From a virus (taxonomy: Duplodnaviria > Caudoviricetes): DNA of 64,000 bases. Every line of letters starts with the position of its first letter. The stretch's first letter is position 1. A model generated the notes under the pieces. That model was not told where the DNA came from. It did not search any database and was given only the letters and a program-made list of their open reading frames with translations. Positions 1,582 through 63,914 of the stretch are shown in pieces. A program made the position numbers and the translations under genes. The stretch lies in IMG/VR virus record IMGVR_UViG_3300042975_000096; one strand, 5' to 3'.

Positions 1582-1920
1582 TCAATTAACCGAATAATTA
1601 TTGTTATCTACCACAAAATCAATATATTCGTTTAAATCATTTAATAAATTTTCATCGGTGGCATCTTCTTCTTTTGCATCTTTATTAACATAAAAATATT
1701 CTTTCCTTACTGAATTTTTAAATGCGTTATCAGAATTAAACCTTTCCTTACCAATAGTCTTTAATTGTTTTTTCAACAATTCTTTTCCTGTTTCCGAAGA
1801 AAAATATGCTGATGGAACATCTTTAGCAGTAAAATCAATCCAATCTGCACTAAATTCAAATTTAACATTACTTACCTTAATTTCATTACTTTCTGCTACT
1901 CTAATTAATCTTTTTTTCAT
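1582..1920 (-). CDS. Small protein with KRLI leader; putative head-internal protein
   Basis: AGGAG RBS; starts MKKRLIRVAES. Confidence 0.55.
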   Translation of the reverse strand: MKKRLIRVAESNEIKVSNVKFEFSADWIDFTAKDVPSAYFSSETGKELLKKQLKTIGKERFNSDNAFKNSVRKEYFYVNKDAKEEDATDENLLNDLNEYIDFVVDNNNYSVN

Positions 1921-1942
1921 TTTTAATTCTTCCTTTACTTTT

Positions 1943-2776
1943 TTACAAATTTGGATACAAAGTTGTTCGCTTCATATTATAAATAGGGTCTTTCATATCA
2001 AATGCCTTTAGTTTTAATTCCTGATGAAATAAATATCCTCCAGCTTGATTTATCATAGATGCAGTCACTTGATATATTGTTCCTGTTGGACTAATCAATA
2101 TATCTCTGTTCATAATCTTAGTGTTTGAAATCGTCCACGCTCCCGGTGAATTGTCTTGAACCAACATTTGGGTACTTATACCCATTGACGTTTCAACAGG
2201 CTTCAACCGGACGTAGAGCTGGAATGCAGGGTCATATCCACCAACATATCCTGTTCCATAACAAACAGGACAATCTTGCGTTCCTGCACGACCGCGAATT
2301 TCATCATAACATTGCGTACAATGTTCACCATCATTCTTCCTAGTGTATAAATCAAATAACATTCCTGTATTTTTCAAAATCCATAAACTACGTTCATTCA
2401 TTTTGAAAAACCATCTATCTGTATTATGTACCTGAAAACATGTTGGTCTTGATAATGCACCCTCAATAAAATCACCATCTGATTCATATACGGCAGACAC
2501 TTTATACCAATTAGCAACATTTGGATTTCTACTAATATCAAAATCTTCAAATCTATTTGTCACTAATGGTTTAGCATTAACCTGATAAAAAATACCATTT
2601 TGAGATATTCCTTTATATAAATTATAATAAATGTTTTTTATTTCTTTGTTTAATACATGCTTATCTGGATTCCTTACTTCATCCCATGTCACAACAATAT
2701 GTGAATTATCTCTTGGATACGAAATTATGACATTTTGTGGTGGTAACAAATTCTTTTTAAATACCTGTATATTCAA
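1943..2776 (-). CDS. Putative neck/head-closure protein (FN3-like N-terminus plus Zn finger)
   Basis: FN3-like elements PPQNV...VTWDE...YNLY...YKVSAV; CTQC...CPVCYGTGYVGGY; lies among structural genes. Confidence 0.55.
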   Translation of the reverse strand: MNIQVFKKNLLPPQNVIISYPRDNSHIVVTWDEVRNPDKHVLNKEIKNIYYNLYKGISQNGIFYQVNAKPLVTNRFEDFDISRNPNVANWYKVSAVYESDGDFIEGALSRPTCFQVHNTDRWFFKMNERSLWILKNTGMLFDLYTRKNDGEHCTQCYDEIRGRAGTQDCPVCYGTGYVGGYDPAFQLYVRLKPVETSMGISTQMLVQDNSPGAWTISNTKIMNRDILISPTGTIYQVTASMINQAGGYLFHQELKLKAFDMKDPIYNMKRTTLYPNL

Positions 2777-2787
2777 AAATAATCACC

Positions 2788-3564
2788 TCATAACTTAATC
2801 ATAACATTCTTATTAAACAATATTGAACTGCCATTCAACTGTTCACTAAAACCATGTAAATCATCCAAACATATTTTTGTTGACTTTACAGGAGATTGTT
2901 TTGACCGTATTTTTATTTCATAATTACCATTTTTTAATGCAAATTTATATTTACCATCTTCATCTGTTTTTACATATGTTTTTAATTCTCCATCTTGTAA
3001 AACAATTATTTCTGCATTTTTTATTGGCGTATGTTTATTATCAATCAATTGTCCATAAATGTTTTTATAATCAGTACCGCAAAAAGAAACAGTATCTTTA
3101 TATTTTCTATAAATTAGACCCTCAATTAATAAATAATATTGGAATTTCAATCCATTACCAATATATTGATTTCTTTTGATTATTTTTTTGTTATTTATAT
3201 AAATTTCAATATTATAAATTCCAGGTTCAATATATGCTATATATCTACCACCATTATCTGTATAACAAACTTCTGAAACAACATCTCCAAATGTACTTGT
3301 TTTTTCATTATTTTTTATAAATACAATCTTTGCATTTGTATAAGTTTTATCGTTATCCTGTAATTTTCCCACAATTGGTTTAACCTTATATCTTTTCATA
3401 TCTAATAAAGACGGGTTTTTAATCACATTGTTATTTGTATATAAATTTGAAATAAATGTTTCTTCTGTTACTACTTCAAAAAAGCATTTATTAACGTGTG
3501 AAGATTGCCTACCAATTGCATCAAAATAACATTCAAAAGTTATAGATTTATCTTGTTTCAACAT
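2788..3564 (-). CDS. Virion protein with carboxypeptidase-regulatory-like (prealbumin/Ig-like) domains
   Basis: Repeated TDxxGxY...xxGxYxI motifs (TDNGGRYIAYIEPGIY, TDEDGKYKFALKNGNY). Confidence 0.6.
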   Translation of the reverse strand: MLKQDKSITFECYFDAIGRQSSHVNKCFFEVVTEETFISNLYTNNNVIKNPSLLDMKRYKVKPIVGKLQDNDKTYTNAKIVFIKNNEKTSTFGDVVSEVCYTDNGGRYIAYIEPGIYNIEIYINNKKIIKRNQYIGNGLKFQYYLLIEGLIYRKYKDTVSFCGTDYKNIYGQLIDNKHTPIKNAEIIVLQDGELKTYVKTDEDGKYKFALKNGNYEIKIRSKQSPVKSTKICLDDLHGFSEQLNGSSILFNKNVMIKL

Positions 3565-3567
3565 TCC

Positions 3568-3966
3568 TCACCCCAAATTAATTAACTTATGTTCAATTAA
3601 TTTATCTTCTTGAAATTTCTCTGCCTTAAATTTTATAGCATTATCATCAATAATCATTGTATATTTATATCTATAGTTATCATCAATTGTATTAATTCCA
3701 ACATTATAAATAATAAATTGACTATTATTAAACAAACTATATTTTTGTGTTTTAAATTGAAAAAAACTAGTTATTTTTTGTTTTAACTTAAAATCAAAAA
3801 CTTTATTATTAATAAAAAAATTAAGGTTATCCTTAACACCACAAAAAACATTTCCATCTGTAAAATAACAAATCTTTATATCTCGCGTATCTTCTAAAAA
3901 AGAATTGTCATATTCAGAAATTAAAATATCATTTTTTGTTAATATTTCCCAATGCATTTTACTCAT
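3568..3966 (-). CDS. Hypothetical protein
   Basis: 132-aa ORF overlapping or abutting both neighbours. Confidence 0.55.
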   Translation of the reverse strand: MSKMHWEILTKNDILISEYDNSFLEDTRDIKICYFTDGNVFCGVKDNLNFFINNKVFDFKLKQKITSFFQFKTQKYSLFNNSQFIIYNVGINTIDDNYRYKYTMIIDDNAIKFKAEKFQEDKLIEHKLINLG

Positions 3967-4474
3967 AGTTGTATAAAAAATTCAAATTAAAGCTATATTG
4001 ACTTTGCTTTATTAATGAATTTTCCCTTAATTTAATTTTTGTCTGAATTGTAGCATGGTCAGATACGCCTAATATTGTTCCATACTCATCACTTGCATTT
4101 CCCTGAATATCCTTAAAATTTTTATTACTCATGCTTATGTCTTTGAATTTAGATTTTACGTCTAATGTTGTGCATCTAGCATATAAGAACGGGGATAAAT
4201 TTCTTGATTCAGGAGGAATCTCTATCTCCAAACTACAGTTTGTAGCATTTTGTGCAATGGTTTGTGGCGTTCCACCATCCCATGCAGGTTCGTTATTCCA
4301 AATATCGAATTCAACTATATATTCCGATTCTCCACCTTTTAATCCATTGCAACGACCATAATATATTTTTTTATTCATTGATGTACTAGCCCATCCTAAT
4401 AATTGATGTCCATCAACATTATCCAACAGCCTAGTATAATATGTCATACGAGGATATACCAAATCAATCACCAC
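3959..4474 (-). CDS. Hypothetical beta-rich virion protein
   Basis: 171 aa; FDIWNN motif and C-terminal FNLNFLYNYE strand; structural context. Confidence 0.45.
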   Translation of the reverse strand: MVIDLVYPRMTYYTRLLDNVDGHQLLGWASTSMNKKIYYGRCNGLKGGESEYIVEFDIWNNEPAWDGGTPQTIAQNATNCSLEIEIPPESRNLSPFLYARCTTLDVKSKFKDISMSNKNFKDIQGNASDEYGTILGVSDHATIQTKIKLRENSLIKQSQYSFNLNFLYNYE

Positions 4475-4512
4475 ACTTCACTTAATTATGTATTTTCATA
4501 ATTTAAATAGAA

Positions 4513-4549
4513 AAAGAGCGATTAATAATATCTATATTAATCGCTCTTT
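4513..4549. terminator. Long hairpin, likely intrinsic terminator
   Basis: aaagagcgattaata-N7-tattaatcgctcttt, a 15-bp inverted repeat downstream of 4593-4844. Confidence 0.65.
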
Positions 4550-4592
4550 CATTTTTCTCTCTATAAATTAATACATGTTTTTCCAATGTGTA

Positions 4593-4844
4593 TTAAAACA
4601 CCACATATGTTTCATCATTAAAAATCTTATATGCCGTTCCGCAATTTTTACAAATCTTGTAACCTTCTTGGTCTTCTAATGGTGAATATTCACATTTTGG
4701 ACAAGTTCCCGTTCGAACTTCAGCAGAATCTAAAGATTTTAATTTCTCCATATTTTCTCCGTCTTGTGGAGTTACCTCAATCTTTATATCTTCCAATTCA
4801 CCATTAGTAATTGCTTTAATTAATCTTTTTTTCATAGAAATCAC
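4593..4844 (-). CDS. Zn-ribbon protein with KRLI leader
   Basis: MKKRLIKAIT start; CPKC...CKNCG. Confidence 0.65.
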   Translation of the reverse strand: MISMKKRLIKAITNGELEDIKIEVTPQDGENMEKLKSLDSAEVRTGTCPKCEYSPLEDQEGYKICKNCGTAYKIFNDETYVVF

Positions 4845-5188
4845 TCATTAACTAATTGAGCCAACTCGCCTACAAAATTATCATCATCATACAAATTATC
4901 ACATGCATATTCCATATCCGCTGCATCATAGTCACTCAAATCAGGTAACTCATTTGCCAATGCTTCAATAACATCTGTCATAAAGTCATCATCCTCGGAC
5001 ATTGTTTCTGCAACCTCATCATTAGAAACCTGAGTTTCAAACAAATCAGGATATTTATCAACAAAATCGTCCAACAAATTCAACATTTTCGGACTCGGAT
5101 TTTTTGCTAATCCTTTTAATTTCTTACTAAGTCCATGGTCATCATGATGCATATTAAAGCCACCAGATGCAATACTCTTTTTACTCAT
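4841..5188 (-). CDS. Acidic hypothetical protein (putative head-internal)
   Basis: Basic N-terminus MSKKSIAS followed by a D/E-rich body; late-promoter motif upstream. Confidence 0.55.
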   Translation of the reverse strand: MSKKSIASGGFNMHHDDHGLSKKLKGLAKNPSPKMLNLLDDFVDKYPDLFETQVSNDEVAETMSEDDDFMTDVIEALANELPDLSDYDAADMEYACDNLYDDDNFVGELAQLVNE

Positions 5189-5264
5189 ATATATCTACTT
5201 CCTTTTGAATTATTAATCATTTTTTACTATTAATAAAATAGCTCAATTTAGTCAATCTATTACG

Positions 5265-6380
5265 TTAAATATCAATTATTTGCTCACTTGTTTTAAAACC
5301 ATTACTATTAATAACAAATTTATATTTCCCTTTATTTAAATTTAATTTAAAACTTCCATCAACATCCGTAATATCTTCGCAAACATATTCGTAAATGTCT
5401 TTTTCTATATTATATACACTTGCTATAATTGAAGCACCCTCAATTCCATTTCCATGGGCATCTAATATATAATCAACGACTTCATTTTCTCCATTACCAT
5501 TATAAACGGTTTTCGTTTTTGTTTTTGTATCTTTAGAAACAATTTCCTCTATGGTTTTTTCCCCACTATTATAAACATTTAATTTAAACTTTTTCAATAT
5601 TCCTGTCGGAGTTTTTATTTTCATAACATAGTTTCCTTCATCTAAAAAAACTTTCCATTTCCCATGATTATCTGTTTTTGTTTCAATCAATGCAGTTTCA
5701 ATATCATCAATATTAAATATTGATATTTCAACATCAGGTATTCCCATATCATTTTTAGAAGTAAATTCATCTTCTATTTTAAACAATCCATTGCCTAACG
5801 CTTTATCAGAAATTTTTTCCAATCCAATATTATTAAATTGAATTTCTTCATTTTCATCACCTATTTGTGCGCGAACAGACCTTGATTCGTATCCGTTCAT
5901 AGAAAATACAAATTCATAATCTCCTGGATATAATTTACTCTCCCATTTTCCGTCTTCATCTGTCAAAGTTGAAAATACAACATTGTTTGATTCCAATTCA
6001 ACAACTTTTACAGTTAAACCTTTTAACAATCTATTATTATTTATATCATTCACATATCCATATAAATATATGGAATTTATATCTTCAATATTTTTTACAA
6101 CTATATTAAATTTATCTAGAACATTTAATGTCTCTCCATTAAACATTCCTCTATACACAACAACATATTGCCCATAATTATCACAAATATTTGTATCAAA
6201 GGTGTATGAATATCCCTCATCTAATGCATTCATAGATTTCCATGGTAAATCTTCGTACACAACCTCATCTGCTTCATGTAAAACTCTAACTTTAGGATTA
6301 TCAACCTTAATAATTTTATTTTCCACTCTAAATTCACAATACAATAACGCTTTATCGCCCTTGAAATAATCCATAACCAT
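5265..6380 (-). CDS. Virion protein with tandem carboxypeptidase-regulatory-like domains
   Basis: Three TDxxGxW/F...GxY repeats; same domain type as 2788-3564. Confidence 0.6.
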   Translation of the reverse strand: MVMDYFKGDKALLYCEFRVENKIIKVDNPKVRVLHEADEVVYEDLPWKSMNALDEGYSYTFDTNICDNYGQYVVVYRGMFNGETLNVLDKFNIVVKNIEDINSIYLYGYVNDINNNRLLKGLTVKVVELESNNVVFSTLTDEDGKWESKLYPGDYEFVFSMNGYESRSVRAQIGDENEEIQFNNIGLEKISDKALGNGLFKIEDEFTSKNDMGIPDVEISIFNIDDIETALIETKTDNHGKWKVFLDEGNYVMKIKTPTGILKKFKLNVYNSGEKTIEEIVSKDTKTKTKTVYNGNGENEVVDYILDAHGNGIEGASIIASVYNIEKDIYEYVCEDITDVDGSFKLNLNKGKYKFVINSNGFKTSEQIIDI

Positions 6381-6424
6381 CCCTCCATCATTTTACAAAA
6401 ACAAAATAGCATTTACGCAAAAAA

Positions 6425-6460
6425 AAATAAGACTCGCTTAACCAAACGAGTCTTATTTTT
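6425..6460 (-). terminator. Intrinsic terminator
   Basis: aaaataagactcg-loop-cgagtcttatttt with a long U-tract on the minus strand, after 6468-6989. Confidence 0.75.
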
Positions 6461-6467
6461 AACAAAA

Positions 6468-6989: not shown

Positions 6990-7018
6990 TATTCAAAAAC
7001 CACCTTATTTTAATTTGA

Positions 7019-8543: not shown

Positions 8544-8972
8544 TTACAATGAATACTCAATAGTCGGAATCCCTTTTTCTTTTGCCATTGATAATTCTTT
8601 TATGCTCTGTTTTCCCCCACCAATTTTTATAAACAAATCTAACATACTTATAAATTCTTTACTTTCATCACCAAAGTTTTTACCATATGCATATATAATA
8701 TCACAAGGATACAATTCATATTCATATCCTTCTTTAGCCATAACACCAACTAAATTAAATCTTTTCCCCAATCTAATATTTTCCTCATTAGCCTTATCAT
8801 ATACCATTTTAGGGATTCCCAAATTTGTTGCTCCTGTAATAATATTTACCAACTCAGAAGTATTACAGAATTCATTCTCAATTTTATCAAATACTGCATC
8901 AATCAATTTTTGTGCATATTTTTTATCAAACTTAGAATCTGAATAACCAACAAAACCTATATTAACAGCCAT
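8544..8972 (-). CDS. SLOG-superfamily protein
   Basis: IGFVG...IITGATNLGIP...IGGGKQSIKELSMAKEKGIP fits the SLOG Rossmannoid pattern. Confidence 0.6.
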   Translation of the reverse strand: MAVNIGFVGYSDSKFDKKYAQKLIDAVFDKIENEFCNTSELVNIITGATNLGIPKMVYDKANEENIRLGKRFNLVGVMAKEGYEYELYPCDIIYAYGKNFGDESKEFISMLDLFIKIGGGKQSIKELSMAKEKGIPTIEYSL

Positions 8973-44882: not shown

Positions 44883-45953
44883 TTAAAAATTTTTATTATA
44901 TTCTAAAATACTTTCATTTAATGCATTTATATCCATACTATTATATATGGGTAAACTTATTGAATGATGTGCAATACGATTAGCTACACTATTACTTGTA
45001 TTCAAATATAACTTATTATCCCAAATTGTATTTGAATACAATGAATCTGTTTCAAAATAATTTTTCAATAATTGAATAGTCTCGTTTTCACCCTCTACCT
45101 GAATTCTACACCATGCAGAGATTGAATTAGATTCTACTTCCTGAAAAGCAACACCTTTTAACTGTTTATAACAATCCGCTATTTCATTTCTTTTTTTCAA
45201 AATTGTATCAATAGTTCGTGCTCTTTCCAGCATCATTATTACATGAAGCGAGTCAACTTCACCATTAGTTCCATCAACAATACAATTATTATCACCATTT
45301 GAACCATGATTCAATAATGAGCATGATTTTTTATATAAATCCTCATCATTTGTAAATAAAGCTCCACCTTCACCAAAGCCACCAAACGGTTTAGTCGGAT
45401 AAAAAGAAACAGCAGACATGTCACAACCAACATTACATGTCTTTTTACCATGATATTCTGCCGTAAATGATTGGCAAGCGTCTTCTAAAACAGGAATGTT
45501 ATATTTTTTTCCTAAATCTAAAATAGAATCATAATCACAAGGATTCCCAAAAATATCTACAGGCAAAATACACTTAATAGATTTATTGGTTTTTAATTCT
45601 TCTTCTAATTTATTCACATCAATGTTCCATGTATTTTTATCTATATCTATAATTACAGGTTTTGCCCCAACAAGTCGTATTGCTGATAAAGTAGCAATAA
45701 AAGTATATGCCGTTGTTGCTACTAAGTCCCCTTCTTTTATACCCAAACACTTTAATGCGACTGCCAATGCCTGTGTTCCTGATTTTGTTAATATACAATA
45801 TTTACTTCCTGTAAAATTTGACAAAATGTTTTGCAGTCTATCCTTATAATCAGAACTCATAAATCTTCCTTTTAAAACTGCATTATCTAATTCTTTAAAC
45901 GCATTTCTTTTTATTGTTAAATATTCAAATTTATTATCAAAGTATTTAATCAT
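44883..45953 (-). CDS. DegT/DnrJ/EryC1/StrS sugar aminotransferase
   Basis: SGTQAL, TAYTFIAT, EDACQS, SFYPTKPFGGFGEGG, SLPIY. AAGGTG RBS favours the ATG at 45953 rather than 46034. Confidence 0.9.
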   Translation of the reverse strand: MIKYFDNKFEYLTIKRNAFKELDNAVLKGRFMSSDYKDRLQNILSNFTGSKYCILTKSGTQALAVALKCLGIKEGDLVATTAYTFIATLSAIRLVGAKPVIIDIDKNTWNIDVNKLEEELKTNKSIKCILPVDIFGNPCDYDSILDLGKKYNIPVLEDACQSFTAEYHGKKTCNVGCDMSAVSFYPTKPFGGFGEGGALFTNDEDLYKKSCSLLNHGSNGDNNCIVDGTNGEVDSLHVIMMLERARTIDTILKKRNEIADCYKQLKGVAFQEVESNSISAWCRIQVEGENETIQLLKNYFETDSLYSNTIWDNKLYLNTSNSVANRIAHHSISLPIYNSMDINALNESILEYNKNF

Positions 45954-46002: not shown

Positions 46003-46740
46003 TCATCTACTTCCCATAGACCATCCCAAATCACTAAATTTATCTTTTAATGATTTGCCAAATGATTTTGATTGTTGTACTACAGGTTTTGTAAGTCCTT
46101 GTAAATTACTCATTGGATTTTTACGATTTGCAACTTTCTTTGGTTTTGAAGATGCATTCAAAGAAGCCTTTAATGCATCCATTCCTTCTGATAAATCACC
46201 ATTAACTGATTCTGAGGTTAAATTTCCCATTTGAGTTTCCATAATTCTATTTGCTTTTATATCAGCTAACGAACGATGTTCACTAAAATCTGATGAAGAA
46301 ATATTTGTAGCCATCGATGGCACTTCTTGTGAAAAATCTCCAATTACTGGACCACTTTTCTTTATTTTTCGTAATGCCTTTTCAGCTTCGGTCAAATTTT
46401 CTTCTTCTTCACTTAATGATGGGTCTGCATTATTAACATCAATCCAAACTTCCGCTTCAACTTCTTTTGCATATTTTTCAAATTCTTCATCTGATAATGT
46501 TTGCACTTCTAACAATTTCATTTCCCTGTCAGACTCATCAATTAAATTTTTCTTAATTGCCATATCAACAATTTTATCAAATTTAGTTGCAAATTTACTT
46601 TCAACCTCAATTTTATTTGACTGTTGTTCTACTGGTTTTTTGATTTCCTCTGTCTTTTTATCAAATAAAACATTATTCAACATCGCAAAAGATATTCTAT
46701 AAAATTTTGGTTCTGGTTTTACAATTTTCAAATTAAGCAA
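46003..46740 (-). CDS. Putative scaffold protein
   Basis: Helical and charged; lies between the protease and capsid genes. Confidence 0.45.
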   Translation of the reverse strand: MLNLKIVKPEPKFYRISFAMLNNVLFDKKTEEIKKPVEQQSNKIEVESKFATKFDKIVDMAIKKNLIDESDREMKLLEVQTLSDEEFEKYAKEVEAEVWIDVNNADPSLSEEEENLTEAEKALRKIKKSGPVIGDFSQEVPSMATNISSSDFSEHRSLADIKANRIMETQMGNLTSESVNGDLSEGMDALKASLNASSKPKKVANRKNPMSNLQGLTKPVVQQSKSFGKSLKDKFSDLGWSMGSR

Positions 46741-46746: not shown

Positions 46747-47283
46747 TCACTCGCTTTCTTCTGAATTGTTATTTTCAGGCTCTTCTTGCTCAGAAGTAGA
46801 TTCTCCACTTTCTTCTGAATCTGAAGAAGGAGCTGATTCCGCATTATCATTACCAGGTAATGATGGGCTTGACTCTGAATCATTATTCGATTCCTGTTCA
46901 TCCAAATCTATATCAACATCGCTTGACTCTGAATCATCAGAATCATTAGGTATATCATCATTTAAATTATAACCATTGTTATTATCTGAATCAGGACTAT
47001 CTTGGTCACTCATATTAATTTGGTCATTATCATATTGAGGTACAATATCAATATTCTCCAAATCATAACAAATACTATATAATCCAGACATCAACTTATC
47101 TAGCATGTCTGAATTTTGAATGATTTTATCACCAATCTCAGGATTATTGCCTGAAATTTTTGCACACTGTTCAACCTTGAATTTAAATTCTTCTAATGAT
47201 TTTAAAATATCTCTACCATCTTGTGATGCTCCTGATATTAATTTTTGAATTGACTGCATATTATCAGCAATTAGTCTTTTCAC
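46747..47283 (-). CDS. KRLIA-leader protein with acidic Ser/Asp tail
   Basis: GAGGGTG RBS favours the GTG at 47283 (MKRLIADN); late-promoter motif upstream. Confidence 0.55.
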   Translation of the reverse strand: MKRLIADNMQSIQKLISGASQDGRDILKSLEEFKFKVEQCAKISGNNPEIGDKIIQNSDMLDKLMSGLYSICYDLENIDIVPQYDNDQINMSDQDSPDSDNNNGYNLNDDIPNDSDDSESSDVDIDLDEQESNNDSESSPSLPGNDNAESAPSSDSEESGESTSEQEEPENNNSEESE

Positions 47284-47392: not shown

Positions 47393-48298
47393 TCAACTCC
47401 ACGGTAAATCTTTTAATTTGTCTACCATTGAATCCATTCTTCCGTCTGCTGTGCGCTGATTCTTTTCATTTGCATACACGTTTTTATTATCAGTATAATA
47501 TTTTGGAACAAAAATACCTGAACGATTTTGTTTACTAGCTACACGTTCTAAAATTTTTGCATCTGGGTCTGCTCCTTGCGTTACAATACTATCCTCAAAA
47601 AACTCAACATCCCTATTATCCTCAAATACAGGCAACCCGTTATATGTTAGCCCTTTATAATTAAGAACATGTTCGCAAATATCATCATCAGAATGTGCTT
47701 CATTTCCGCAAATAGAACAAATTGCATATCCGCATCTACATCCCATAGAGGTATCTGTTAACCATCTTTTTATAATTCCACTTGCCAACTGAGGAAATGC
47801 TTTTTTATCAATTGCTTCTAACAACTCTACAAAATATCCATTTGTATTATAAATAGCATCTAAAATGATGCCACGAGCATCATCCACATTTTCATCATTA
47901 TGGTCAACGAACACCGATTTACCAATAAATGTTTTATATTTTAATTCCAATTCCTCGTGAGAAAAGAAATCACCATTAAGATTTGCGTTTCTACAAACCT
48001 TTGCATAATTAGGAAAATCATTATAATACGTTTCAATATCAACTAATTCGCAATTACCATTCTTATGCTCAATTACATTACCTGCCGAAACAGCACGATT
48101 TCTAATATAAATAAAATCATTTTCCTTTGGCGCAATCTGAACTACTTTAGCAGTCTTAATACGCTTATCAACTTTATTTAAAGTAGAACTATCTTTAAGC
48201 AATTCTAGCCCTGCTTTTTTGTTTCCATATAACGTAAAAATTCCATTGTATTCTGTGAAATCTTCTATTCGCCCTTTTGTATTATTTCTAAATAACAT
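47393..48298 (-). CDS. Prohead (capsid maturation) protease with Zn finger
   Basis: NLNGDFF, FIGKSVFVDHN (His), TSMGC (Ser), CSICGN...CEH, FFEDSIVTQGADPDA. Confidence 0.8.
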   Translation of the reverse strand: MLFRNNTKGRIEDFTEYNGIFTLYGNKKAGLELLKDSSTLNKVDKRIKTAKVVQIAPKENDFIYIRNRAVSAGNVIEHKNGNCELVDIETYYNDFPNYAKVCRNANLNGDFFSHEELELKYKTFIGKSVFVDHNDENVDDARGIILDAIYNTNGYFVELLEAIDKKAFPQLASGIIKRWLTDTSMGCRCGYAICSICGNEAHSDDDICEHVLNYKGLTYNGLPVFEDNRDVEFFEDSIVTQGADPDAKILERVASKQNRSGIFVPKYYTDNKNVYANEKNQRTADGRMDSMVDKLKDLPWS

Positions 48299-48317: not shown

Positions 48318-48620
48318 TTAAAACGTTTCCCAAACGCCTATACTTTTCAAATATCTCTCTACTGTATCTAAACATTCTTGCCAATGTTTTTTTACTTCAC
48401 CTATTGGACAAACTTCATCCAATAATCCCATCTGTATCTGCTGAGTTAATTCATATACACGTTCACCTGTTGGAACAATCGGTAAATCTGCCAAAATCTG
48501 TTTTGCTAACAAATATGATTCATTGCTATTAATCAATCTCGTGGAAGATTTATCAACAATTGAAGTTACAACATTATGCGTATATGGAGATACATGGTTA
48601 CTTAATCTTTTAAAAGCCAT
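48318..48620 (-). CDS. Hypothetical protein with KRLS leader
   Basis: AGGAG RBS; starts MAFKRLSNH. Confidence 0.55.
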   Translation of the reverse strand: MAFKRLSNHVSPYTHNVVTSIVDKSSTRLINSNESYLLAKQILADLPIVPTGERVYELTQQIQMGLLDEVCPIGEVKKHWQECLDTVERYLKSIGVWETF

Positions 48621-50008: not shown

Positions 50009-51787
50009 TTAGCCCTTTCTGACTATTATATTATCATTTAACGGCGTTTTTGCATGTCTATTAAAAAATCTATCCATATCAAATGATGTTTGTACATTTT
50101 TTGGCATACCAAAATCCTCTGGATTATTCCCTGTGCTTGGTTCGCTATTATTACTCGGTGGTGGTGACGGTCTTGTTGATGGGCTATACTGAAAATCTTC
50201 ATTATCCTTAGAAGGTTTATTTTCTCTAATTGTATCCCCTGTTTCAAAATCAGTAAGAATATTTTTTCCTTCATTTGGAAGCGGACCAGATTTTGGAGCA
50301 TTTTCATCAAATACTGTACCACGCTCTTTTTCAAGATTTCTTTTTTCAGTTTCAGGGTCTAATGACAACATAGGCAATACGGTTGTCATGGATACTAATC
50401 CTTTATCACGCAAATTTTGAATAAAATTCATAACCGACTGATTACTTGTTAAATCTTGTTGTTGCCAAATTATTTTTGGTACAACTAATTCCATTTCCTT
50501 CTTTGCAGCTAAACGACGTTGTTCTTTTTCAGACGTATACCTTGTTGCAATTGCACCATTAACAGGCTTATAGAATCCTTGCACTTCTGCTATTGGTTTA
50601 TATACTTTCTGTCTTATCCATGATTCAAGTCTAAGTCTATAAGACATGTATCTCTTTGCTAATGTATCAAATCCAACTTGTGCATTTGCATAAGCTGAAC
50701 CATCACCATTTAACATGGCTTGTGTTATGCAAAGACCAGTCATTAATTCATTTTGAATAAATTCAAATTCTGTATTTAATGGCAATATTTTTCCTGTCGA
50801 ACCAACATATTCAAAACTCAATCCATAATGATATACTAAGAAAAAGTTCGGGTCATCTTCACCCTCATACAACAAATCCCTAAATGCATCAATATCATCC
50901 TGTGATGGCATTGGCTCTCCCGGTGTACCAATTTTTGCAACTCGTATTGGGAAAATATGTCTATTCGCAATAGCATCTTGTGCCTGTCTTAATTTATCTT
51001 TATAAATTAAAGTTTTAAAGCATCTCATCATTAATGGAGTTCCCCATGATTCATATGGAGATGCTTTATGTGCAATATGGGAAACTAAACGATTATCCAA
51101 AGAAATATTTTTTCCCATTTTAACTTGTGTTAATACATCATCAGGAAATTGTCGATACAAATCTCCAAATTCGCCTGCTGGTCCTCCATTAATAATATTC
51201 AATGTTTGGTCATCAGGAATCAGTTCAATTTGTGGTTCGTTTGCAAATATTGAACTGATTACATTAATGTAATCAGGATTCAACAACGTGAAATTTTCCC
51301 AAATACCTTCTGACTCGTTAAACTGCCCAAACGGAAAAACATCACCAATCTTCCAATATTCCAATCCAATATCCAACAGCAAACTAACTAAATCTATTTT
51401 ATCAAATGCCATATAATCAAAAAATTTTCTAATATACGGGTCACTACAAATATTATTCATATCAGAAATTGGAAATTCTGTATGCAAATCCAATGCTGTT
51501 GCAACAATTGGCTCAGTTCTATAAAAGTGTCTGCACCATTCATTACGCTCACGTCTATCTCTAGGTAGCAACATATTGGTTGCTTGAAATAATGGTTGAT
51601 AAAAGGTAGGATTACCCATAACAACATCTGCTGAAGCACCACGAACTATTTTTTTCCCACTACCATTGCCATTTCTTTTCATTTGTCTTTGTATGTTTTT
51701 CGGCAAATCATTTTTGTTTACAATACTGTTCATTGCCAAATTACCATTTGTATTTCTACTAGCGGTTACTTTATGATTACGTTTCAA
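50009..51787 (-). CDS. Portal protein
   Basis: WCRHFYRTEPIVATALDLHTEFP, LLNPDYI, SHIAHKASPYESWGTP, YANAQV, RLESWI; 592 aa; upstream of the protease. Confidence 0.85.
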   Translation of the reverse strand: MKRNHKVTASRNTNGNLAMNSIVNKNDLPKNIQRQMKRNGNGSGKKIVRGASADVVMGNPTFYQPLFQATNMLLPRDRRERNEWCRHFYRTEPIVATALDLHTEFPISDMNNICSDPYIRKFFDYMAFDKIDLVSLLLDIGLEYWKIGDVFPFGQFNESEGIWENFTLLNPDYINVISSIFANEPQIELIPDDQTLNIINGGPAGEFGDLYRQFPDDVLTQVKMGKNISLDNRLVSHIAHKASPYESWGTPLMMRCFKTLIYKDKLRQAQDAIANRHIFPIRVAKIGTPGEPMPSQDDIDAFRDLLYEGEDDPNFFLVYHYGLSFEYVGSTGKILPLNTEFEFIQNELMTGLCITQAMLNGDGSAYANAQVGFDTLAKRYMSYRLRLESWIRQKVYKPIAEVQGFYKPVNGAIATRYTSEKEQRRLAAKKEMELVVPKIIWQQQDLTSNQSVMNFIQNLRDKGLVSMTTVLPMLSLDPETEKRNLEKERGTVFDENAPKSGPLPNEGKNILTDFETGDTIRENKPSKDNEDFQYSPSTRPSPPPSNNSEPSTGNNPEDFGMPKNVQTSFDMDRFFNRHAKTPLNDNIIVRKG

Positions 51788-51950: not shown

Positions 51951-54365
51951 TTAAGCAATCGGAGTTGTAGATAATGTACCATCATCCGCAACAACCAATT
52001 TGAATTTCTTTCCACCAGCAGAAGTTAAAACTACATTATCAACTGCATCTGCTTTCTTAGCATAATCACCCAACGTCGTAGTCAAAGAAGTCATGCTAAC
52101 ATAATTACCTAACGTTGTGGTCAACTCTGTTTTATCAACTTTCAATGCCAAATCCGTATTACTAGCTTTCAATGACAAATCAGAAACAGAAGCATAAGAT
52201 TTTAATTTCTCATCTACCTGAGAAGTTGTATATACTGTCGTAGAATCTGCTTTTTTAGCAAGTAAATTATCAGATTCCGTTTTTGTATATACATCAGCAG
52301 AGTTAGCTTTCAAGTCAACTGCACTTACTTGTGCATATTTCAATAAAAGCTTATCCAACTCAATTTTCTGTACATACGCAATCAAATCATCATCGTCAAC
52401 TTTTTTAGCAATCAAATCGACCAATTCTGCTTTATTTCCTTTATTATCCAACTTTGCATCAATATCTGCTTTCGTATAAACTTCAGCTCTATCTGCTTTT
52501 TGTGAATTAACAACATTAATAGAACTCAACGTAGCATAATTTGCAAGTTTAGAATCAATTACTGCCTGAGTATATACCTGAGAATCATCAGCTTTTTGTG
52601 CCAACGCCTTATCAACGTCTGCCGTATTAGCTTTCACATTCAACAACGCATCTGTCTGCAATTTTGTATATCCATCTACAGATTTAATGTAGTCACCCAA
52701 AGCCAACGTAACTTCGTCTTTCTTGATATAAGGATTGAACTTAACGTCAACCTCTGTTTTATCATAAACATCCGCTGCATTTGCTTTTAATGCCAACTTA
52801 TCATCCGTATCTTTTGTATTATAAACATCAGCTACATTTGCTTTTAATGCCAATGCCTTATCAACATCGGAAATAGAATAAACATTTGTTACATCTGCTT
52901 TTTTAAGCAACGTAGTATCTATATCACTTTTACTATAAACATCAACTTTATTCGCGAACTTAGCATCTGCATCAACTTTACTATAAACGTCAGCTACATT
53001 TGCTTTCAAATCAAATGCTTTATCTGAATCAGCCTTTAAATATGAATCTCCAACATTAGCTTTCAATACGAGTGCATCATTAATTTCTGTTTTATTATAT
53101 GTATCAGCAAAATTTGCTTTCAACAATAATGCTCCATCAACTTCTGATTTATTATAAACATCAACAAGGTCAGCTTTCAAACCTAATGCTTTATCAGATT
53201 CAGCTTTTACATATGAATCTCCAACATTAGCTTTTCCTCCCAACAACTTATCGGCTTCTGCTTTTAAATAAGAATCACCAACATTGGACTTGTTAACCAT
53301 CTGCAAATCCATTTCAGATTTCGTATAAACCGTACCAACATTAACTTTTCCTAACAATTTAGCATCAATTTCAGCCTCAGTATAAATAGTATTGACATTC
53401 ATTTTACCAGCCAACATATCATCAACAGCTTTACGATTATACGTATCGCTAACATTAGCTTTCAATGCCATTTGTGAATCAACATCAGACTTAGCATATA
53501 CATCGTCCGTGTTAGCCTTGCTATCGATTTTAGCAAGTCTAGGGTCATTATCCCCCACAGCTACCGGATTAAATGCGTCTACCGGGTCTACAGAGAGTTT
53601 AACAATACCTTTAGTGCTACCTGTTGCTGTTTTCAATGAACCATCCATGTTCAAAGAAGAAATAAAATCATTCCACGTAATACCATCGTTAGTAAATTCC
53701 CAAACTGATTTTTTTTCGTTATAACGAATTCCTACTGCGTTTTCGTCACCACGATTAACTGAAACACCAACATTGGCAAATGGTGAGCCAGTCTGTGCTT
53801 GATTCAAAACAAAATTCGTAGCATTTGTACCTTTTACGTTATCAATTTTGTCATCAACTTTTGTCAAATCAGCATATTCAACCTTTGCATCCAATTTTTC
53901 TTTCAATCCACTAATTGCTGAAATTGGATGGCTATTAGCCAAATCCGTATTTTCCAACAACGCATGGTCACCAGGATATGTACCACTTGCAAGGAATGGA
54001 CGAACATCAAAAACCATATCACTTGTAATTTTCTTACTATTTACACCAAGATAAATAGCAGCTAATGGCAACTGACCTTTTTCGATTTTCGGAAGTTCAG
54101 GATTTCTTGCTGCTGGAACACCATTTGTTACAAACAATGTACCCACTTTATTAATACCAACAATGACCCATTCGTTTCCTGTCGTTGGAGCTTGAATAAC
54201 AGGACTATTACCACCTTCAAACTCAACAATATTCATTCCATCAACGTAGAATGAACCCTCATTAACAGAAACCGTCATGTTTGGGTCTTTTTGAGCAGAC
54301 ACACGTAACTCTTCCATAACTGCACCAATATTTCTATAAGTGCTTCCAGAGACTGGTTTATTCAT
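51951..54365 (-). CDS. Fibre protein with ~18-aa KANxxDxYxKxExD repeats
   Basis: More than 20 tandem repeats; HPISAISGL and ATGSTKGIVKLS fibre-type motifs; C-terminal LTSAGGKKFKLVVADDGTLST. Confidence 0.75.
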   Translation of the reverse strand: MNKPVSGSTYRNIGAVMEELRVSAQKDPNMTVSVNEGSFYVDGMNIVEFEGGNSPVIQAPTTGNEWVIVGINKVGTLFVTNGVPAARNPELPKIEKGQLPLAAIYLGVNSKKITSDMVFDVRPFLASGTYPGDHALLENTDLANSHPISAISGLKEKLDAKVEYADLTKVDDKIDNVKGTNATNFVLNQAQTGSPFANVGVSVNRGDENAVGIRYNEKKSVWEFTNDGITWNDFISSLNMDGSLKTATGSTKGIVKLSVDPVDAFNPVAVGDNDPRLAKIDSKANTDDVYAKSDVDSQMALKANVSDTYNRKAVDDMLAGKMNVNTIYTEAEIDAKLLGKVNVGTVYTKSEMDLQMVNKSNVGDSYLKAEADKLLGGKANVGDSYVKAESDKALGLKADLVDVYNKSEVDGALLLKANFADTYNKTEINDALVLKANVGDSYLKADSDKAFDLKANVADVYSKVDADAKFANKVDVYSKSDIDTTLLKKADVTNVYSISDVDKALALKANVADVYNTKDTDDKLALKANAADVYDKTEVDVKFNPYIKKDEVTLALGDYIKSVDGYTKLQTDALLNVKANTADVDKALAQKADDSQVYTQAVIDSKLANYATLSSINVVNSQKADRAEVYTKADIDAKLDNKGNKAELVDLIAKKVDDDDLIAYVQKIELDKLLLKYAQVSAVDLKANSADVYTKTESDNLLAKKADSTTVYTTSQVDEKLKSYASVSDLSLKASNTDLALKVDKTELTTTLGNYVSMTSLTTTLGDYAKKADAVDNVVLTSAGGKKFKLVVADDGTLSTTPIA

Positions 54366-55442: not shown

Positions 55443-57703
55443 TTACTTTCTTGCAAAAATTTCTTTTGTTTTATTATTAACGGCATATTCCTGTCCACAT
55501 TTTGCACATTTTACGCCAACATAATCACCAATCTGTGCTACTCCTTGCAATGATTTTCTTCTTCACAACAAGGACATACTTGATTCATAAATTCTTCCAA
55601 ATCTTCTGGATTTTCAAGCATGATAACCACATCATCAGGATTGCTATCGTCCTGAATCTCAATAGTATCTTCTTCTGTTTCTGGAGTTTCTTCAACAACC
55701 TCAACATCGTCAGGAGCTTCAACATCCTCTTCAATATCAACAGGTGCATCTACTGTTTCTTCAACCATTGGTTCTTCTGCAATATCTTCGGTTGGCTCTT
55801 CAATTACTTCTTCAACATCATCATTTTCAACAGGAACATCATTTCCAATTGAAAACAACTCGTTCAAAAAGTTTTCATTCAATTTAACTCTATCATTCAT
55901 ATTTGACAAATCAAGTTCATGTTCTTTATCAATAATCTTCTGAGTGTCTTGAGCAGCTTCCTCAAAATGCTTTACTTCTTCATCCTCAGAATGTAAATCA
56001 TAAGCATCATTTGGAGTTTCCGTATGAGCATATTGCTGTTCAGAAAAAGCGATTAATCTTTTGCTCCCATAAATATGGTCTCCCTGTGACCATGAACATG
56101 CTGAATCCCATGCATTTGAAATTGCATCACCAACACTACTTACTGCATCGCCAACACCATTAGCAATATCTTGGAATCCAGTGCTATCACTATTTTCAGA
56201 GTAATCATCTGCTTTTACACTTTTACTATTGGCTTTCAAATTACCAGTTGTATCTGGATTATCATCAACAACTGTCATTTCTCCACCAATACCTGTCCCA
56301 GGGTCTGCATCTGAATCTGGTCCAGGCTCTGAATGACCATGCCCCATACCATCTTCTCCAATACCATCATCAACATTAATTTCACCAATGGCTGATTTAA
56401 TCGTTTTTTCAAGACTGTTAATACGAGCAACTAATTTATTAAAACTAGCTTTTGAAACCATTCTATCATTAACATATTTTGCTGGTAGTGGTTGTGGTCT
56501 TTCATCTTTACCCTCGCCCTTTGATTTACATACGCAAGGATTTTTTCCACAAATAGGACATACTTCTCCAGCTGTTTTCAAACTACCAGTAGTTTCATCA
56601 TCCGAACTTGAATCAGAGGAATCCGAATCAGATGACCCACCATCCATTGGCCCATAATTAAGCAAACTTGGAGCTTCTTGTTTATCAGGATTTCCACTAT
56701 CCATCATTTGATTCTCAATTGGTTCATATCCACCTCCAGGAGTGCCATAACTAAATGCAACCTGTAAACGTTTCTTTGATTTGACTTTTCCTGTCGTACC
56801 ATCAGAACCACTATCATCAGAACCACTATCAGAACTTGAACCATCAGAATCCGTAGCAAAACCGAATCCACCTGCGTTTGGCGGAGTCAATACCTGTTCT
56901 TCAAATGACTGAATGCTACTACCAGGCTTTTCTACACCAAATGCAACATTTTTACGTTTTTTATCATCCTTGATAGAAGCAGATTCGTAATCAATCCCCG
57001 TATCGTCAGGGCCCTCCGGTTTCTCTGGGTCTTCAGGTTCCATTGGCATAGGTTCTCCCGGTTCTTCAGGTTCGCTAGGCTCTTCAGGTTTATCAGGGTC
57101 TTCCATCGGCATATATGCTTTTTTAACGTTTGCTGTGCTTTCATTACTTCCCGGTTCTAATGAATCAACTGACGGCATTCCACTCTCGCCCTCAATGTTT
57201 CCACCGCCATCAACTCCACGAGCAATATTATCATTGTTGATTCCACTATCCATACCAGGAAGTTCTGGAGCCTCTGCTACTTTTTTCAATTCATTTTCAA
57301 AGGAATCATCAATATCAGCCGTTACATCAGCACCAGTATCAACACTTGAATCTTCAATATCCTCATTACCAACAACTGTACGGTCTGCCTCTTTATCATT
57401 TTCTTCCTGATTAGTAGAAGTTTTATCTTCATCCTTATCTTCACAATCAGTAGAATCATTACCTTCAACAGAAGCTACAATTGAATTTTCGTTCAAATAC
57501 TTATTAACATCTTCTACAGTTTTTGCATCATCAATTAAGCTAACTTCGTTACCATAATCATTATACAATACTGCGCCATCTGGATTAAAATTAACATAAA
57601 AAGTTTCATCTTTCCAATTAACTTTTGGCAAATTTTTAACATTAGTTTCGGCAGTAACTTTGTTGTTATACTTAGAAATAAAAGTTTCTAACCACGAAGC
57701 CAT
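55443..57703 (-). CDS. Large acidic modular head-internal/scaffold-like polyprotein with frameshifted C-terminal Zn ribbon
   Basis: Likely start MASWLETF at 57703. The track ORF stops at 55538, but a -1 shift near 55555 completes CPCC...SLQGVAQIGDYVGVKCAKCGQEY. Confidence 0.6.
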
Positions 57704-57828: not shown

Positions 57829-58020
57829 CTAGTTTTGGTCTTGCAATCTCCATTCCATATTATCCATTGGTTCTTCAAACTTATATGGAGTTGTATATTT
57901 ACTATTTTCTATTTCCCCATCATTTAATATTTTGTTTTCATAAGTTTCAAAGTTTAATCCAATCTGCATAGGAATTTCTCTATGTGTTATAGGTCTTGCC
58001 ACTAAACGTTTCATATACAA
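57829..58020 (-). CDS. Small protein with KRLVA leader
   Basis: Starts MYMKRLVARP. Confidence 0.55.
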   Translation of the reverse strand: MYMKRLVARPITHREIPMQIGLNFETYENKILNDGEIENSKYTTPYKFEEPMDNMEWRLQDQN

Positions 58021-58026: not shown

Positions 58027-58416
58027 TCAACTATTGGCAAAATCAGAATCACCCAAAAACAAAGGTTTCATCTTCAGTGTCATATCTTGTCCTTTATCTT
58101 TCAAACTATCAATTTTATCTAACACTTGCTGTTTTGTCCTAGCAAAATTTTCAGCAAAATTAACACCCTGTAATGCAAGCATTAATTCACAATATAATTC
58201 AAACGATTTTTCAAAATCGTCACCATCATATAAACTTGAAGTTTCAAATCTATCATGACAAACAATAGAATACATTAACCTATTACCCAACAACCTCACT
58301 GTATATTCATAATACAAACCGGCTTTAGTCATAAATCCATGTAAAGATAATGTTGGTTTCGATGGCATACTAACTGCCAATGTTTTTCTTTTCTTTAATA
58401 CAGTTAATCTTTTCAT
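58027..58416 (-). CDS. Hypothetical protein with KRL leader
   Basis: GAGGTGGA RBS; the ATG overlaps the upstream TGA; starts MKRLTVLKKRKTLA. Confidence 0.55.
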   Translation of the reverse strand: MKRLTVLKKRKTLAVSMPSKPTLSLHGFMTKAGLYYEYTVRLLGNRLMYSIVCHDRFETSSLYDGDDFEKSFELYCELMLALQGVNFAENFARTKQQVLDKIDSLKDKGQDMTLKMKPLFLGDSDFANS

Positions 58417-58688
58417 CGTCCTATCCACCTCATAGAAGAAGCCCACCACCCAGGAATACCTGGGCGTGGATTTGTATCTAATTGTTCATTTTCATAATCA
58501 ACAACATTTTGAGGATTCAACACAAACGTTTTTGCATCATTGTTATCATGTTGCTTTAATTCAAAATTTTTATCACCTTTTGAATTATCACCATCAAAAT
58601 AACTTCTTTCATTATCTTCTATCATTCTTCGATATTCCATTTCTAAATTATTCATATCAAGTTCAGATAATCTAATCAAACGTTTCAT
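58413..58688 (-). CDS. Small protein with KRLIRLS leader
   Basis: Starts MKRLIRLSELD. Confidence 0.55.
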   Translation of the reverse strand: MKRLIRLSELDMNNLEMEYRRMIEDNERSYFDGDNSKGDKNFELKQHDNNDAKTFVLNPQNVVDYENEQLDTNPRPGIPGWWASSMRWIGR

Positions 58689-58700
58689 TTAAATCAATCC

Positions 58701-61964: not shown

Positions 61965-61981
61965 TTGACATTCAGCTCCTT

Positions 61982-62323
61982 TTATGCCATTCTTCCATAA
62001 ATATTATTTATGGCTTCATCAACTGTGCTATAAAATCCACGATATTTTACGTCTGACCATTTCGGTTGTTTATACCCTGCCAATTGGCATCTAGCAGAAA
62101 TTACAACAAATACCTCATCGAGATTTTCATTATCTAAAACAATTTTCCAAACTTCATATACATCAATAATGTCTTTTATGTCAACAGCCGTATAAAAATC
62201 TTCTATATTACTTTTCGCTCTATTCTTTTGTTTCCTAATACTTCTAATAGGAACAGGAGGATTGGCAAACTTTTCTTTTAATAATGAACTAACATTATCG
62301 CTTGCATTATGGATTGCATCCAT
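61982..62323 (-). CDS. Hypothetical protein
   Basis: 113 aa in a co-oriented gene run. Confidence 0.55.
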   Translation of the reverse strand: MDAIHNASDNVSSLLKEKFANPPVPIRSIRKQKNRAKSNIEDFYTAVDIKDIIDVYEVWKIVLDNENLDEVFVVISARCQLAGYKQPKWSDVKYRGFYSTVDEAINNIYGRMA

Positions 62324-62367
62324 AACTTCACTTAAAGGAATATTTCCTATATTATCCTCTGCAAAAT

Positions 62368-63237
62368 TTAATCGTTTTTTTTTAGACTCGCATGAGCTAC
62401 AGGAACTTCAAACTGTTCTGGTTTTACACCATCAAAACCGCGCATATCTGAAATATAATCCCAACCATTAGTTCCACCTTCATAAGGAGCATCATATGGG
62501 TCTTGATTTTCACACAACATTTTTTCCATATTGGTCAAACCTTCATTGCTAATGCCAAAATCCTGATAATGTTCTGGAGCTACATCCTCAATTTTATTAT
62601 TCATTAAATCTGTCGTTAATTCTACTGCATAATCCTGTGGGAAAATCTCCTGATAATAATCTAATAGATTAGAAACCCTTGCTTCTGAAAGATTGCTACC
62701 CATTTCTTCAATATCATCGATTTCACCAAAACACAATTTCAAAGCTTCACTATTGCCAAATGCTTTTTTTGCTACTGCTAATTTAGTTTTAAGGTTTGCC
62801 TTTGTTGCTAAACGCATAATATTCTTTAATCTCTTAGCATAAAAAGCTCTATCATCCGTAAGAACAGGATAAACAGTATATCCTTTTTCTTTAATTTGTT
62901 CAGCAATTGCTTTTTTCAAATTGTTATTATAACGCAATGTGAAACCTTCATAAAAATCCTGAAGAGAACCATCAATACCATTCCATAATGTAAGAATGTA
63001 ATCGGCTAAAAACTCTGGATGATAGTGCATATTGATTACTTCTTGAGCAGCAGTTTTTTTATTTGATTTATGCAATTTAGACCATTGCTGAAATGCATAT
63101 GGCTCTAACTGATATCCTTTCAAATAATCATTCATACATGGGTCTGCCAATTCATCTCCATCGTCACGCCAATTCAAATCCAAATCATAATCATATTCTT
63201 TTGGTTTTTGTGTCATTCTTTTCATCTCTTGTGACAT
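62368..63237 (-). CDS. Hypothetical acidic protein with internal basic KxA linkers
   Basis: 289 aa; NKKTAA and KRLKNIMRLATK...AKKAF segments. Confidence 0.55.
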   Translation of the reverse strand: MSQEMKRMTQKPKEYDYDLDLNWRDDGDELADPCMNDYLKGYQLEPYAFQQWSKLHKSNKKTAAQEVINMHYHPEFLADYILTLWNGIDGSLQDFYEGFTLRYNNNLKKAIAEQIKEKGYTVYPVLTDDRAFYAKRLKNIMRLATKANLKTKLAVAKKAFGNSEALKLCFGEIDDIEEMGSNLSEARVSNLLDYYQEIFPQDYAVELTTDLMNNKIEDVAPEHYQDFGISNEGLTNMEKMLCENQDPYDAPYEGGTNGWDYISDMRGFDGVKPEQFEVPVAHASLKKND

Positions 63238-63914
63238 TAGCGATTTCCCCCTTTTTCTGTCGTTTCAGATTTTGCAATAGATAATACAATGTTTTTTGAA
63301 GCATTGTTAAAACCATTCATAATTAATTTTTCTCTAATCTCGGAAACCAAATTATCAGTTACAACACATTTTCCTTCTTTTAATGTTGCAATAATTTTCT
63401 TATCCAATTTCTCCAACAAAACCTTGTATTTACCACTATTATTTATTGTATTTGATACCGTATCTTTTTGTTCATTTGAAGAAGCTTTTTTTGTTCTGAC
63501 TACATCATTTTCGTCATCACCATTAATTTCTTTCACTAAATATTGCTGTCCATCTTCATAGGTTTTCAATGTCCAAATAGAACCTTCATCAAACCCATAA
63601 TCATACACACCTGCAATCGACGTTTTATTATATGCTTGATATTTATTGTTTCCTAGATTTTTAAAATCTTTCAAAATTTTTTCGTCTGCTTTAAACTTCG
63701 GTACTTCTGGAGAATAATACACATTAAAATATTCTCCTGTTTTTTCATAGCTTGCCTGATACCCATTCACGTTCAAATCGTTCTTTACTTTTTTTGCTTC
63801 TGGTTCAGAATTTACTACAGAAAACAATTTTTTGTTTTGTTTTTTTAAATTTTTAGCGATTCGTGTAAACGTTTCATTGTCAAAAATTTCATCTGATATT
63901 CGTTTAATCACCAT
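63237..63914 (-). CDS. Hypothetical protein with KRIS leader
   Basis: GGGAG RBS; starts MVIKRISDE; internal TKKASS. Confidence 0.55.
   Translation of the reverse strand: MVIKRISDEIFDNETFTRIAKNLKKQNKKLFSVVNSEPEAKKVKNDLNVNGYQASYEKTGEYFNVYYSPEVPKFKADEKILKDFKNLGNNKYQAYNKTSIAGVYDYGFDEGSIWTLKTYEDGQQYLVKEINGDDENDVVRTKKASSNEQKDTVSNTINNSGKYKVLLEKLDKKIIATLKEGKCVVTDNLVSEIREKLIMNGFNNASKNIVLSIAKSETTEKGGNR

Follow-up and report, generated by a model that had tools for sequence, protein, structure and literature searches.

A short N-terminal Lys-Arg-Leu tag on unrelated proteins of phage-G-like megaphages, a candidate capsid-sorting signal

The internal proteins of phage T4, together with Alt, gp67 and gp68, reportedly use a capsid-targeting sequence (CTS) of this kind, a short N-terminal peptide (Mullaney and Black 1996, as cited in PMC10052503). 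Herpesvirus assemblins cut at sites of the form (V/L/I)-X-A↓S, where the arrow marks the cut. In staphylococcal phage 80alpha an L27-like motif, KLNLQ[FH]F↓A, is removed by the host protease Prp, and the propeptides of phiKZ and SPN3US are defined by an S/A/G-X-E cut site. These last propeptides are carried by head and ejection proteins and cut by gp175 and gp245, and a targeting role has been proposed for them (PMC10052503, PMC7411985). Beyond T4 and the phiKZ group, little is understood of how giant phages load the dozens of proteins that their heads contain or eject. We analysed a 64,000-nucleotide stretch of viral DNA (IMG/VR record IMGVR_UViG_3300042975_000096; Duplodnaviria, Caudoviricetes), called the window throughout, in which ten unrelated proteins begin with variants of one short basic peptide, M-(K)-K-R-L-[I/V]-(K-K)-[A/S], hereafter the KRL tag. 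We are nearly certain that the tag signal itself is real, and we see an about even chance that, by analogy with T4, it is a modular N-terminal sorting tag that would recruit proteins to the prohead and then be trimmed.

The window comes from a megaphage resembling Bacillus phage G (497.5 kb). Its portal protein (50009-51787, minus strand) is 67.5% identical to phage G gp14, its gene order parallels phage G gp4-gp27, and a 281-kb relative that is 98% complete, G001, is collinear with it; no nucleotide-level match of the window to deposited phages was found. Phage G and G001 served as comparison genomes in place of the window's whole genome. The G+C content is 25-33% when taken in 4-kb steps, and nearly every gene lies on the minus strand. 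The ten carriers are listed below, followed by two look-alikes (arrows, putative cut position; gp numbers, phage G proteins).

1582-1920, minus strand: 112 residues, MKKRLIRVA↓ES; in the neck/tail-proximal module, where it lies upstream of 2-745, the sheath homologue
4593-4835, minus strand: 80 residues, MKKRLIKA↓IT; small Cys4 zinc-ribbon protein
37618-38820, minus strand: 400 residues, MKRLGKNN; Nuc_deoxyri_tr2 plus Nudix-like enzyme
39598-40092, plus strand: 164 residues, MRKRLIA↓QS; no family match
42826-43110, minus strand: 94 residues, MNILRKRLA↓KE, tag from residue 5; just downstream of the major capsid gene
46747-47283, minus strand: 178 residues, GTG start, MKRLIA↓DN; gp20 orthologue with a helical N-terminal half and a poly-acidic tail
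48318-48620, minus strand: 100 residues, MAFKRLS↓NHV; gp17 orthologue
57829-58014, minus strand: 61 residues, MKRLVA↓RP; gp10 family, placed by synteny
58027-58416, minus strand: 129 residues, MKRLTVLKKRKTLA↓VS; gp9 orthologue, apparently with two tag copies
58413-58688, minus strand: 91 residues, MKRLIRLS↓EL
63237-63914, minus strand: MVIKRISD, not a carrier
50009-51787, minus strand: portal, MKRNHKVTAS, only loosely tag-like

An initial annotation had proposed about ten such proteins encoded on both strands, and all the N termini it listed are present, at the same positions or at most three codons away. The start first placed at 4844 is more likely the ATG at 4835, that placed at 58020 the ATG at 58014, and the gene at 47283 opens with GTG. 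The total of ten holds but its membership shifts: the MVIKRISD protein drops out, as its orthologue family keeps a different start (MI[KR]R[TV]xD), and the 37618-38820 enzyme, which had been overlooked, comes in. Three looser versions, in the portal and in the open reading frames (ORFs) at 5188 and 32645, are loose look-alikes only. Both strands are represented, but the plus strand by the gene at 39598 alone.

Each motif lies within 13 codons of an upstream in-frame stop, so the N-terminal location holds whichever start codon is chosen. With gene starts picked by ribosome-binding site alone, and with no motif preset, the commonest N-terminal tripeptide in the window was KRL (10 genes), followed by RLI (5) and KKI (4). 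Ten of the 71 genes have KRL among their first 11 residues, and 18,321 interior residues hold it three times, a roughly 100-fold difference. When the N termini were shuffled column by column, KRL turned up 0.50 times on average and at most 6 times in 20,000 trials; shuffling within each sequence put the mean at 0.51 and the maximum at 4, and ten was never reached in 20,000. A position matrix at threshold 12 matched 9 of the 71 window N termini and a single interior site among 17,611 positions. Bacillus jumbo phage AR9, which has the same G+C content as the window (27.8%), carries KRL in 1 of 314 N termini, and none of these 314 matched the matrix at threshold 12. The motif thus stands above shuffled controls and above the general bias towards MK starts, and the shuffles, matrix counts and AR9 together rule out chance or AT-rich composition as its source.

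Paralogy among the carriers was ruled out as well: BLAST among their bodies returned a best E-value of 0.36, in agreement with the earlier description of these bodies as unrelated. Also rejected was the idea that the signal lies in the nucleotides, for example as an RNA or DNA element spanning the start codon. Across 34 phage G tags and those of the window, the Arg codons (AGA/CGT/CGA/AGG) and Leu codons (TTA/TTG/CTT) follow genome usage, and the regions upstream of tagged genes are dissimilar to each other; this synonymous variation and upstream divergence indicate selection on the peptide. PHROG and Pfam annotation assigned no family to 9 of the 10 window carriers, and the only recognisable function among them is that of one nucleotide-metabolism enzyme; a role for carriers as anti-defence effectors is speculation.

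A portal-based search yielded 24 G-like phage loci with portal identities of 58-79%. Across about 20 relatives, orthologues of gp20, gp17, gp10, gp9 and gp8 retain the tag, with body identity falling as low as 22-36%. Just eight columns of the gp20-like alignment are invariant, R3 and L4 among them, and A6 is present in at least 90% of 23 homologues. The gp17-like family keeps R5 and L6 without exception and K4 almost so (at least 90%), placing the Arg and Leu of the tag among the few invariant columns of both families, whose bodies share 22-35% identity. The phage G orthologue of the 4593-4835 carrier (103932-104135) begins MRRLIRKL, and that of the 37618-38820 enzyme, gp334, is also tagged and starts MKRLVKA. 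The consensus of 118 non-redundant tags is M-K-R-L-[I/V/K/R]-[K/R]-K-[A/S]-[N/E/S], with Lys or Arg at 4-5 of 8 tag positions; the window's sub-lineage has a shorter form, MKRL-[I/V/F]-A. In phage G, 33 of 705 ORFs are tagged at a matrix threshold of 12, compared with 3 interior matches, and G001 has 13 tagged ORFs of 419 at a threshold of 10, again compared with 3 interior matches. About 5% of phage G proteins and 14% of window genes carry the tag. Neither of the strings MKRLIK and KRLIKK[AS] was found in the literature searched.

The tag behaves as a module that can be separated from the folded body and is gained or lost independently of it. The untagged product of 8544-8972 (minus strand) has a 46%-identical phage G orthologue, gp345, that carries MKRLIKKSKGDSN ahead of the same body, a clean case of tag gain or loss. 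This product is a small SLOG-like protein with a weak LSDAT_prok match. A phage G paralogue family with an early [FY]HGT[SD] motif (here HGTS; 35181, 178671, 245994, 402421 and 446709) varies in the same respect, in that four members are tagged, 402421 begins directly at the domain, and one member is embedded in a 2,010-residue protein. The HGTS family has a weak Pfam match to the PARP catalytic domain (E = 2.5e-4, below the curated cut-off) and no member in the window. Tandem tag copies occur in which the second copy is not N-terminal, and the gp17-like family has an indel linker of 0-7 residues right after the tag. In the AlphaFold model of the window's gp17-like protein (48318-48620), residues 1-22 have a pLDDT below 50 and form a coil outside the four-helix body.

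Tag-like peptides are also found inside one very acidic head-module protein, the 721-residue product of 55538-57703 (minus strand), as KKRLQVA at residue 311 and as KRLIA at residues 548-552. The second is the sole interior matrix match in the window at a threshold of at least 10.

56048-56062, minus strand: internal KRLIA at a domain boundary of the 721-residue protein, just before its EQQYAH module

Phage G gp21 and one relative have the EQQYAH module at the N terminus, behind a tag-like peptide; in L021 it is again internal. The internal sites of the 721-residue protein hint at a possible polyprotein or at the fossil of a gene fusion.

The tag is concentrated in head and neck morphogenesis genes. 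Five window carriers are small proteins whose genes are scattered among those for the portal, protease and scaffold-like protein (46.7-58.7 kb), one lies beside the capsid gene and two belong to the neck module; the others are the plus-strand carrier and the Nuc_deoxyri_tr2/Nudix enzyme. In phage G, 9 of 32 carriers fall within the first 40 kb, which holds the head module (binomial p = 0.0012), and other carriers are dispersed. Tagged phage G proteins include gp13, gp17, gp20, gp38, gp53, gp334, the ferritin/Dps-like gp346 and the HGTS family. Untagged proteins include the capsid protein, the protease, the products of ORFs matching the phage G decoration and sheath genes, and the enzymes of a sugar and radical S-adenosylmethionine (SAM) block; for the last, the initial annotation had correctly recorded the motif as missing from glycosyltransferases, radical-SAM enzymes and methyltransferases, and the DNA methylase and carbamoyltransferase of the block lack it too. 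The head-module genes that bear most directly on the tag are the following.

47393-48298, minus strand: predicted prohead protease, gp19 orthologue (56% identity), matching the head-maturation protease family phrog_18299 (E = 5.1e-18)
46003-46740, minus strand: scaffold-like protein of the gp21 family, untagged, with the C terminus KFSDLGWSMGSR
43224-44063, minus strand: major capsid protein, untagged, 81% identical to phage G gp27 (PDB 6WKK), with 1,912 homologues at E ≤ 1e-10

The earlier assignment of 47393-48298 as the prohead protease is borne out by its PHROG match, a conserved His and Ser, and assemblin-type fold matches. H133 and S184 are invariant among homologues, the structural model has a confident core at residues 56-243 with disordered ends, and the top Foldseek matches comprise herpesvirus assemblins and T4 gp21 only, at weak scores (E = 1.5e-3, TM about 0.3-0.47). 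Sequence and model thus predict a prohead protease of the assemblin/T4 gp21 fold. An insertion at residues 187-208 adjoins the catalytic Ser184 and contains four invariant cysteines (C187, C194, C197 and C208), with a weak Pfam IBR match. To our knowledge, a zinc ribbon within an assemblin-fold protease is unusual.

The reading that these observations support best is one of address followed by trimming. The tag would recruit its carriers, which would be small core or internal proteins together with some enzymes, into the assembling prohead, as the T4 CTS does; the assemblin-fold protease 47393-48298 would then probably trim the tag at its terminal conserved small residue; and the carriers would end inside the capsid, from which they could exit with the DNA. 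Capsid targeting could as readily be right as wrong, and cleavage may be a little less probable than that. The gp20-like protein of 46747-47283 is a candidate prohead core protein. The sole sequence basis for a cut after Ala or Ser is the conserved small residue that ends the tag, and the A↓S sites of assemblins supply an analogy; an Ala or Ser stands five residues past the Arg in 49 of 118 tags, and in 47 of those 49 it is the first small residue after the Arg. The KRLIA at the domain border of the 55538-57703 head protein is a further hint in favour of address and trimming. A broader version, in which a tag of 6-9 residues sends about 5% of the proteome into the capsid across the whole lineage, with an assemblin-type protease of herpesvirus-like small-residue specificity reading and trimming the tag, and with delivery alongside the DNA, strikes us as a tentative and rather doubtful extension. 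We regard with similar reserve the cargo that it would entail, namely the Nudix/deoxyribosyltransferase enzyme, a Dps/ferritin-like DNA-binding protein and the PARP-like domain family. The capsid of the phage G lineage (T=52) is, as far as we know, the largest among cultivated phages.

Several observations weigh against address and trimming. The tag lacks a conserved Glu and does not resemble that of T4, and none of the capsid protein, the protease and the scaffold-like protein carries it. The last two have in common a different, C-terminal motif, [D/N]-L-x-W-[S/T] (...VDKLKDLPWS and ...LKDKFSDLGWSMGSR, respectively), which is kept in the protease and gp21 families across all relatives, with LPWS invariant in the protease. 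Herpesvirus and other protease/scaffold pairs dock to the shell by a shared C-terminal signal, and by analogy the motif seen here is probably a shell-docking signal, so the KRL tag would not be the sole address system. The packaging of some enzyme carriers would be unexpected. Among the roughly 30 particle-detected phage G proteins named in the text of PMC12484599, gp346 is the only one tagged, which equals the background rate expected by chance; that particle data set also includes many non-structural proteins.

The protease and capsid protein were searched for further signs of processing. [KR]-x-[AS] triplets at the domain borders of the protease (KTA at 48-50, [KR]VA at 252-254) are conserved, and as autoprocessing sites they are suggestive and not statistically distinctive, there being five such triplets in this protein; this too counts against trimming by the proposed route. 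The last two residues of gp27 are absent from the PDB 6WKK chain, and C-terminal processing of the capsid protein was rejected as a clue to protease specificity, since the residue after the conserved 'AKI' of its C-terminal tail varies freely among homologues. Complex prediction for the capsid protein with residues 1-100 of the gp20-like protein returned a score of 0.00 and counts neither way.

If the tag were never cut, it could act in the mature protein as a retained basic arm that holds on to packaged DNA, to the gp20-like protein through its poly-acidic tail or to some other assembly partner, with the small residue being only a linker. The strongly basic composition of the tag, the acidic bodies of the window carriers (pI 4.1-5.3), the long acidic tail of the gp20-like protein and the finding of no cleavage motif in common with known prohead proteases all fit such an arm. 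Charge alone, however, does not account for the invariant Leu or the fixed small residue, the tag is found on enzymes of unrelated function, and many non-carriers are just as acidic; we consider a retained arm unlikely.

A turnover or processing signal, in which the tag is an N-terminal degron or recognition peptide for a host or phage AAA+ protease such as ClpXP or for another peptidase and would set how long these proteins last, we hold to be quite unlikely. Phage G encodes ClpP and ClpX (ClpP confirmed here), and non-structural enzymes are among the carriers. ClpX reportedly recognises some N-terminal Met-basic-hydrophobic motifs, a result attributed to Flynn et al. in 2003 that speaks for a degron. 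ClpP (PF00574) is, however, absent from two relatives that keep the tag, G001 and G002 (504 kb, 100% complete), so the phage Clp system cannot be the general reader, which leaves host ClpXP, and a degron does not predict the enrichment of carriers in the head module.

Sorting to another destination, be it a membrane, a phage-built compartment or a secretion route, seems improbable to us. The tag does look like a basic n-region or a patch resembling a nuclear localization signal, and phage G has a tubulin-like gene and TraC/TraD-like genes according to PMC12484599. No carrier, however, has a hydrophobic h-region or lipobox after the tag; polar and charged residues follow instead (...RVAESNEIKVS, ...ADNMQSIQK), unlike a Sec or lipoprotein signal peptide. 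The tag is also most strongly conserved in small genes that lie among those for the portal, protease and scaffold. Finally, an effect on expression, with the first codons of genes in an AT-rich genome selected for efficient initiation or early elongation of translation and not for protein function, accords with the 17-18% of genes that start MK and with the Lys-rich starts common in such genomes but is very improbable, as tag codon choice mirrors genome usage and so bespeaks no nucleotide-level constraint, the Arg-Leu invariance is left unexplained, the presumed top-expressed genes (capsid, sheath and decoration protein) are untagged, AR9 of equal G+C lacks the tag, and the second tandem copies are not N-terminal.

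The wider window sets the carriers in two separate modules.

2-6374: neck/tail-proximal module, at the left end of the window
about 10800-42800: block encoding four radical-SAM enzymes, GT2 and GT1 glycosyltransferases, a carbamoyltransferase and an N6/N4 DNA methylase

The product of 2-745 matches the first 222 residues of the 579-residue phage G ORF 107642-109381, which we take to be the tail sheath gene, making 2-745 the sheath homologue. The block of about 30 kb separates the neck/tail module from the head module; it has no counterpart in phage G and is conserved in G001, and it could serve virion glycosylation or DNA/sugar modification. A DegT aminotransferase gene lies beyond it, at 44883-45953. 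Between the portal and the upstream head genes, 51951-54365 (minus strand) encodes an 804-residue protein with tail-fibre-like PHROG matches, whose phage G homologue is far off, at 184.6 kb, indicating that the head module has been rearranged. A protein identical to the 46747-47283 product occurs on public contigs of up to 431,886 bp, so public assemblies already include a near-complete genome, either this phage's own or that of a very close relative.

If address and trimming were to hold, candidate capsid cargo could be listed from sequence in any G-like genome (10 proteins in the window, about 33 in phage G). An assemblin-type protease that is so far uncharacterised would gain a cut-site hypothesis, and the tag would offer a portable handle by which foreign proteins could be loaded into a T=52 shell. 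Phage G can be cultivated and liquid chromatography-tandem mass spectrometry (LC-MS/MS) data exist for its virion, making the idea directly testable. Were the tag a degron or a retained arm instead, it would still be a signal of the whole lineage, as yet undescribed, that marks about 5% of the proteins of a megaphage.

Among known systems, encapsulin cargo-loading peptides resemble the KRL tag in being short and modular and in loading diverse enzymes, ferritin-like ones included, into an HK97-fold shell, but they are usually C-terminal, are not cleaved and bind a defined pocket of the shell protein. Phage 80alpha likewise offers a short N-terminal peptide on head proteins of a Firmicute phage that is removed during assembly, whereas its motif is unrelated to KRLI(KK)A/S, occurs on two proteins only (capsid and scaffold) and is read by a host enzyme. 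Herpesvirus assemblins are the best structural match of the protease, and the end of the tag, L-[I/V]-(K-K)-A/S, often followed by S, N or E, resembles a site with Ala at P1; assemblin sites, however, lie on the C-terminal side of the scaffold and not in an N-terminal tag.

phiKZ and SPN3US share with the G lineage jumbo-phage heads that contain many internal proteins and processing by an assemblin-fold protease, but their propeptides are long and mutually dissimilar, whereas the KRL tag is uniform, 6-9 residues long and at the extreme N terminus. The T4 CTS, carried by IPI-III, Alt, gp67 and gp68 and cut by gp21, is like the KRL tag short, N-terminal, modular and borne by unrelated proteins, and some of its carriers, which include enzymes, are encoded in the head gene cluster and others at scattered loci; the cognate proteases, gp21 and 47393-48298, are also both assemblin-like in fold, at the weak scores given above. 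The T4 sequence differs in being amphipathic and ending in Glu (an L/I-x-E cut motif), whereas the KRL-I/V-A/S tag is basic and without a conserved Glu, and the G lineage has far more carriers, at about one in twenty phage G proteins and one in seven window genes. By its sequence the KRL tag is not a member of the CTS family, and in function the T4 CTS appears to be its closest known counterpart.

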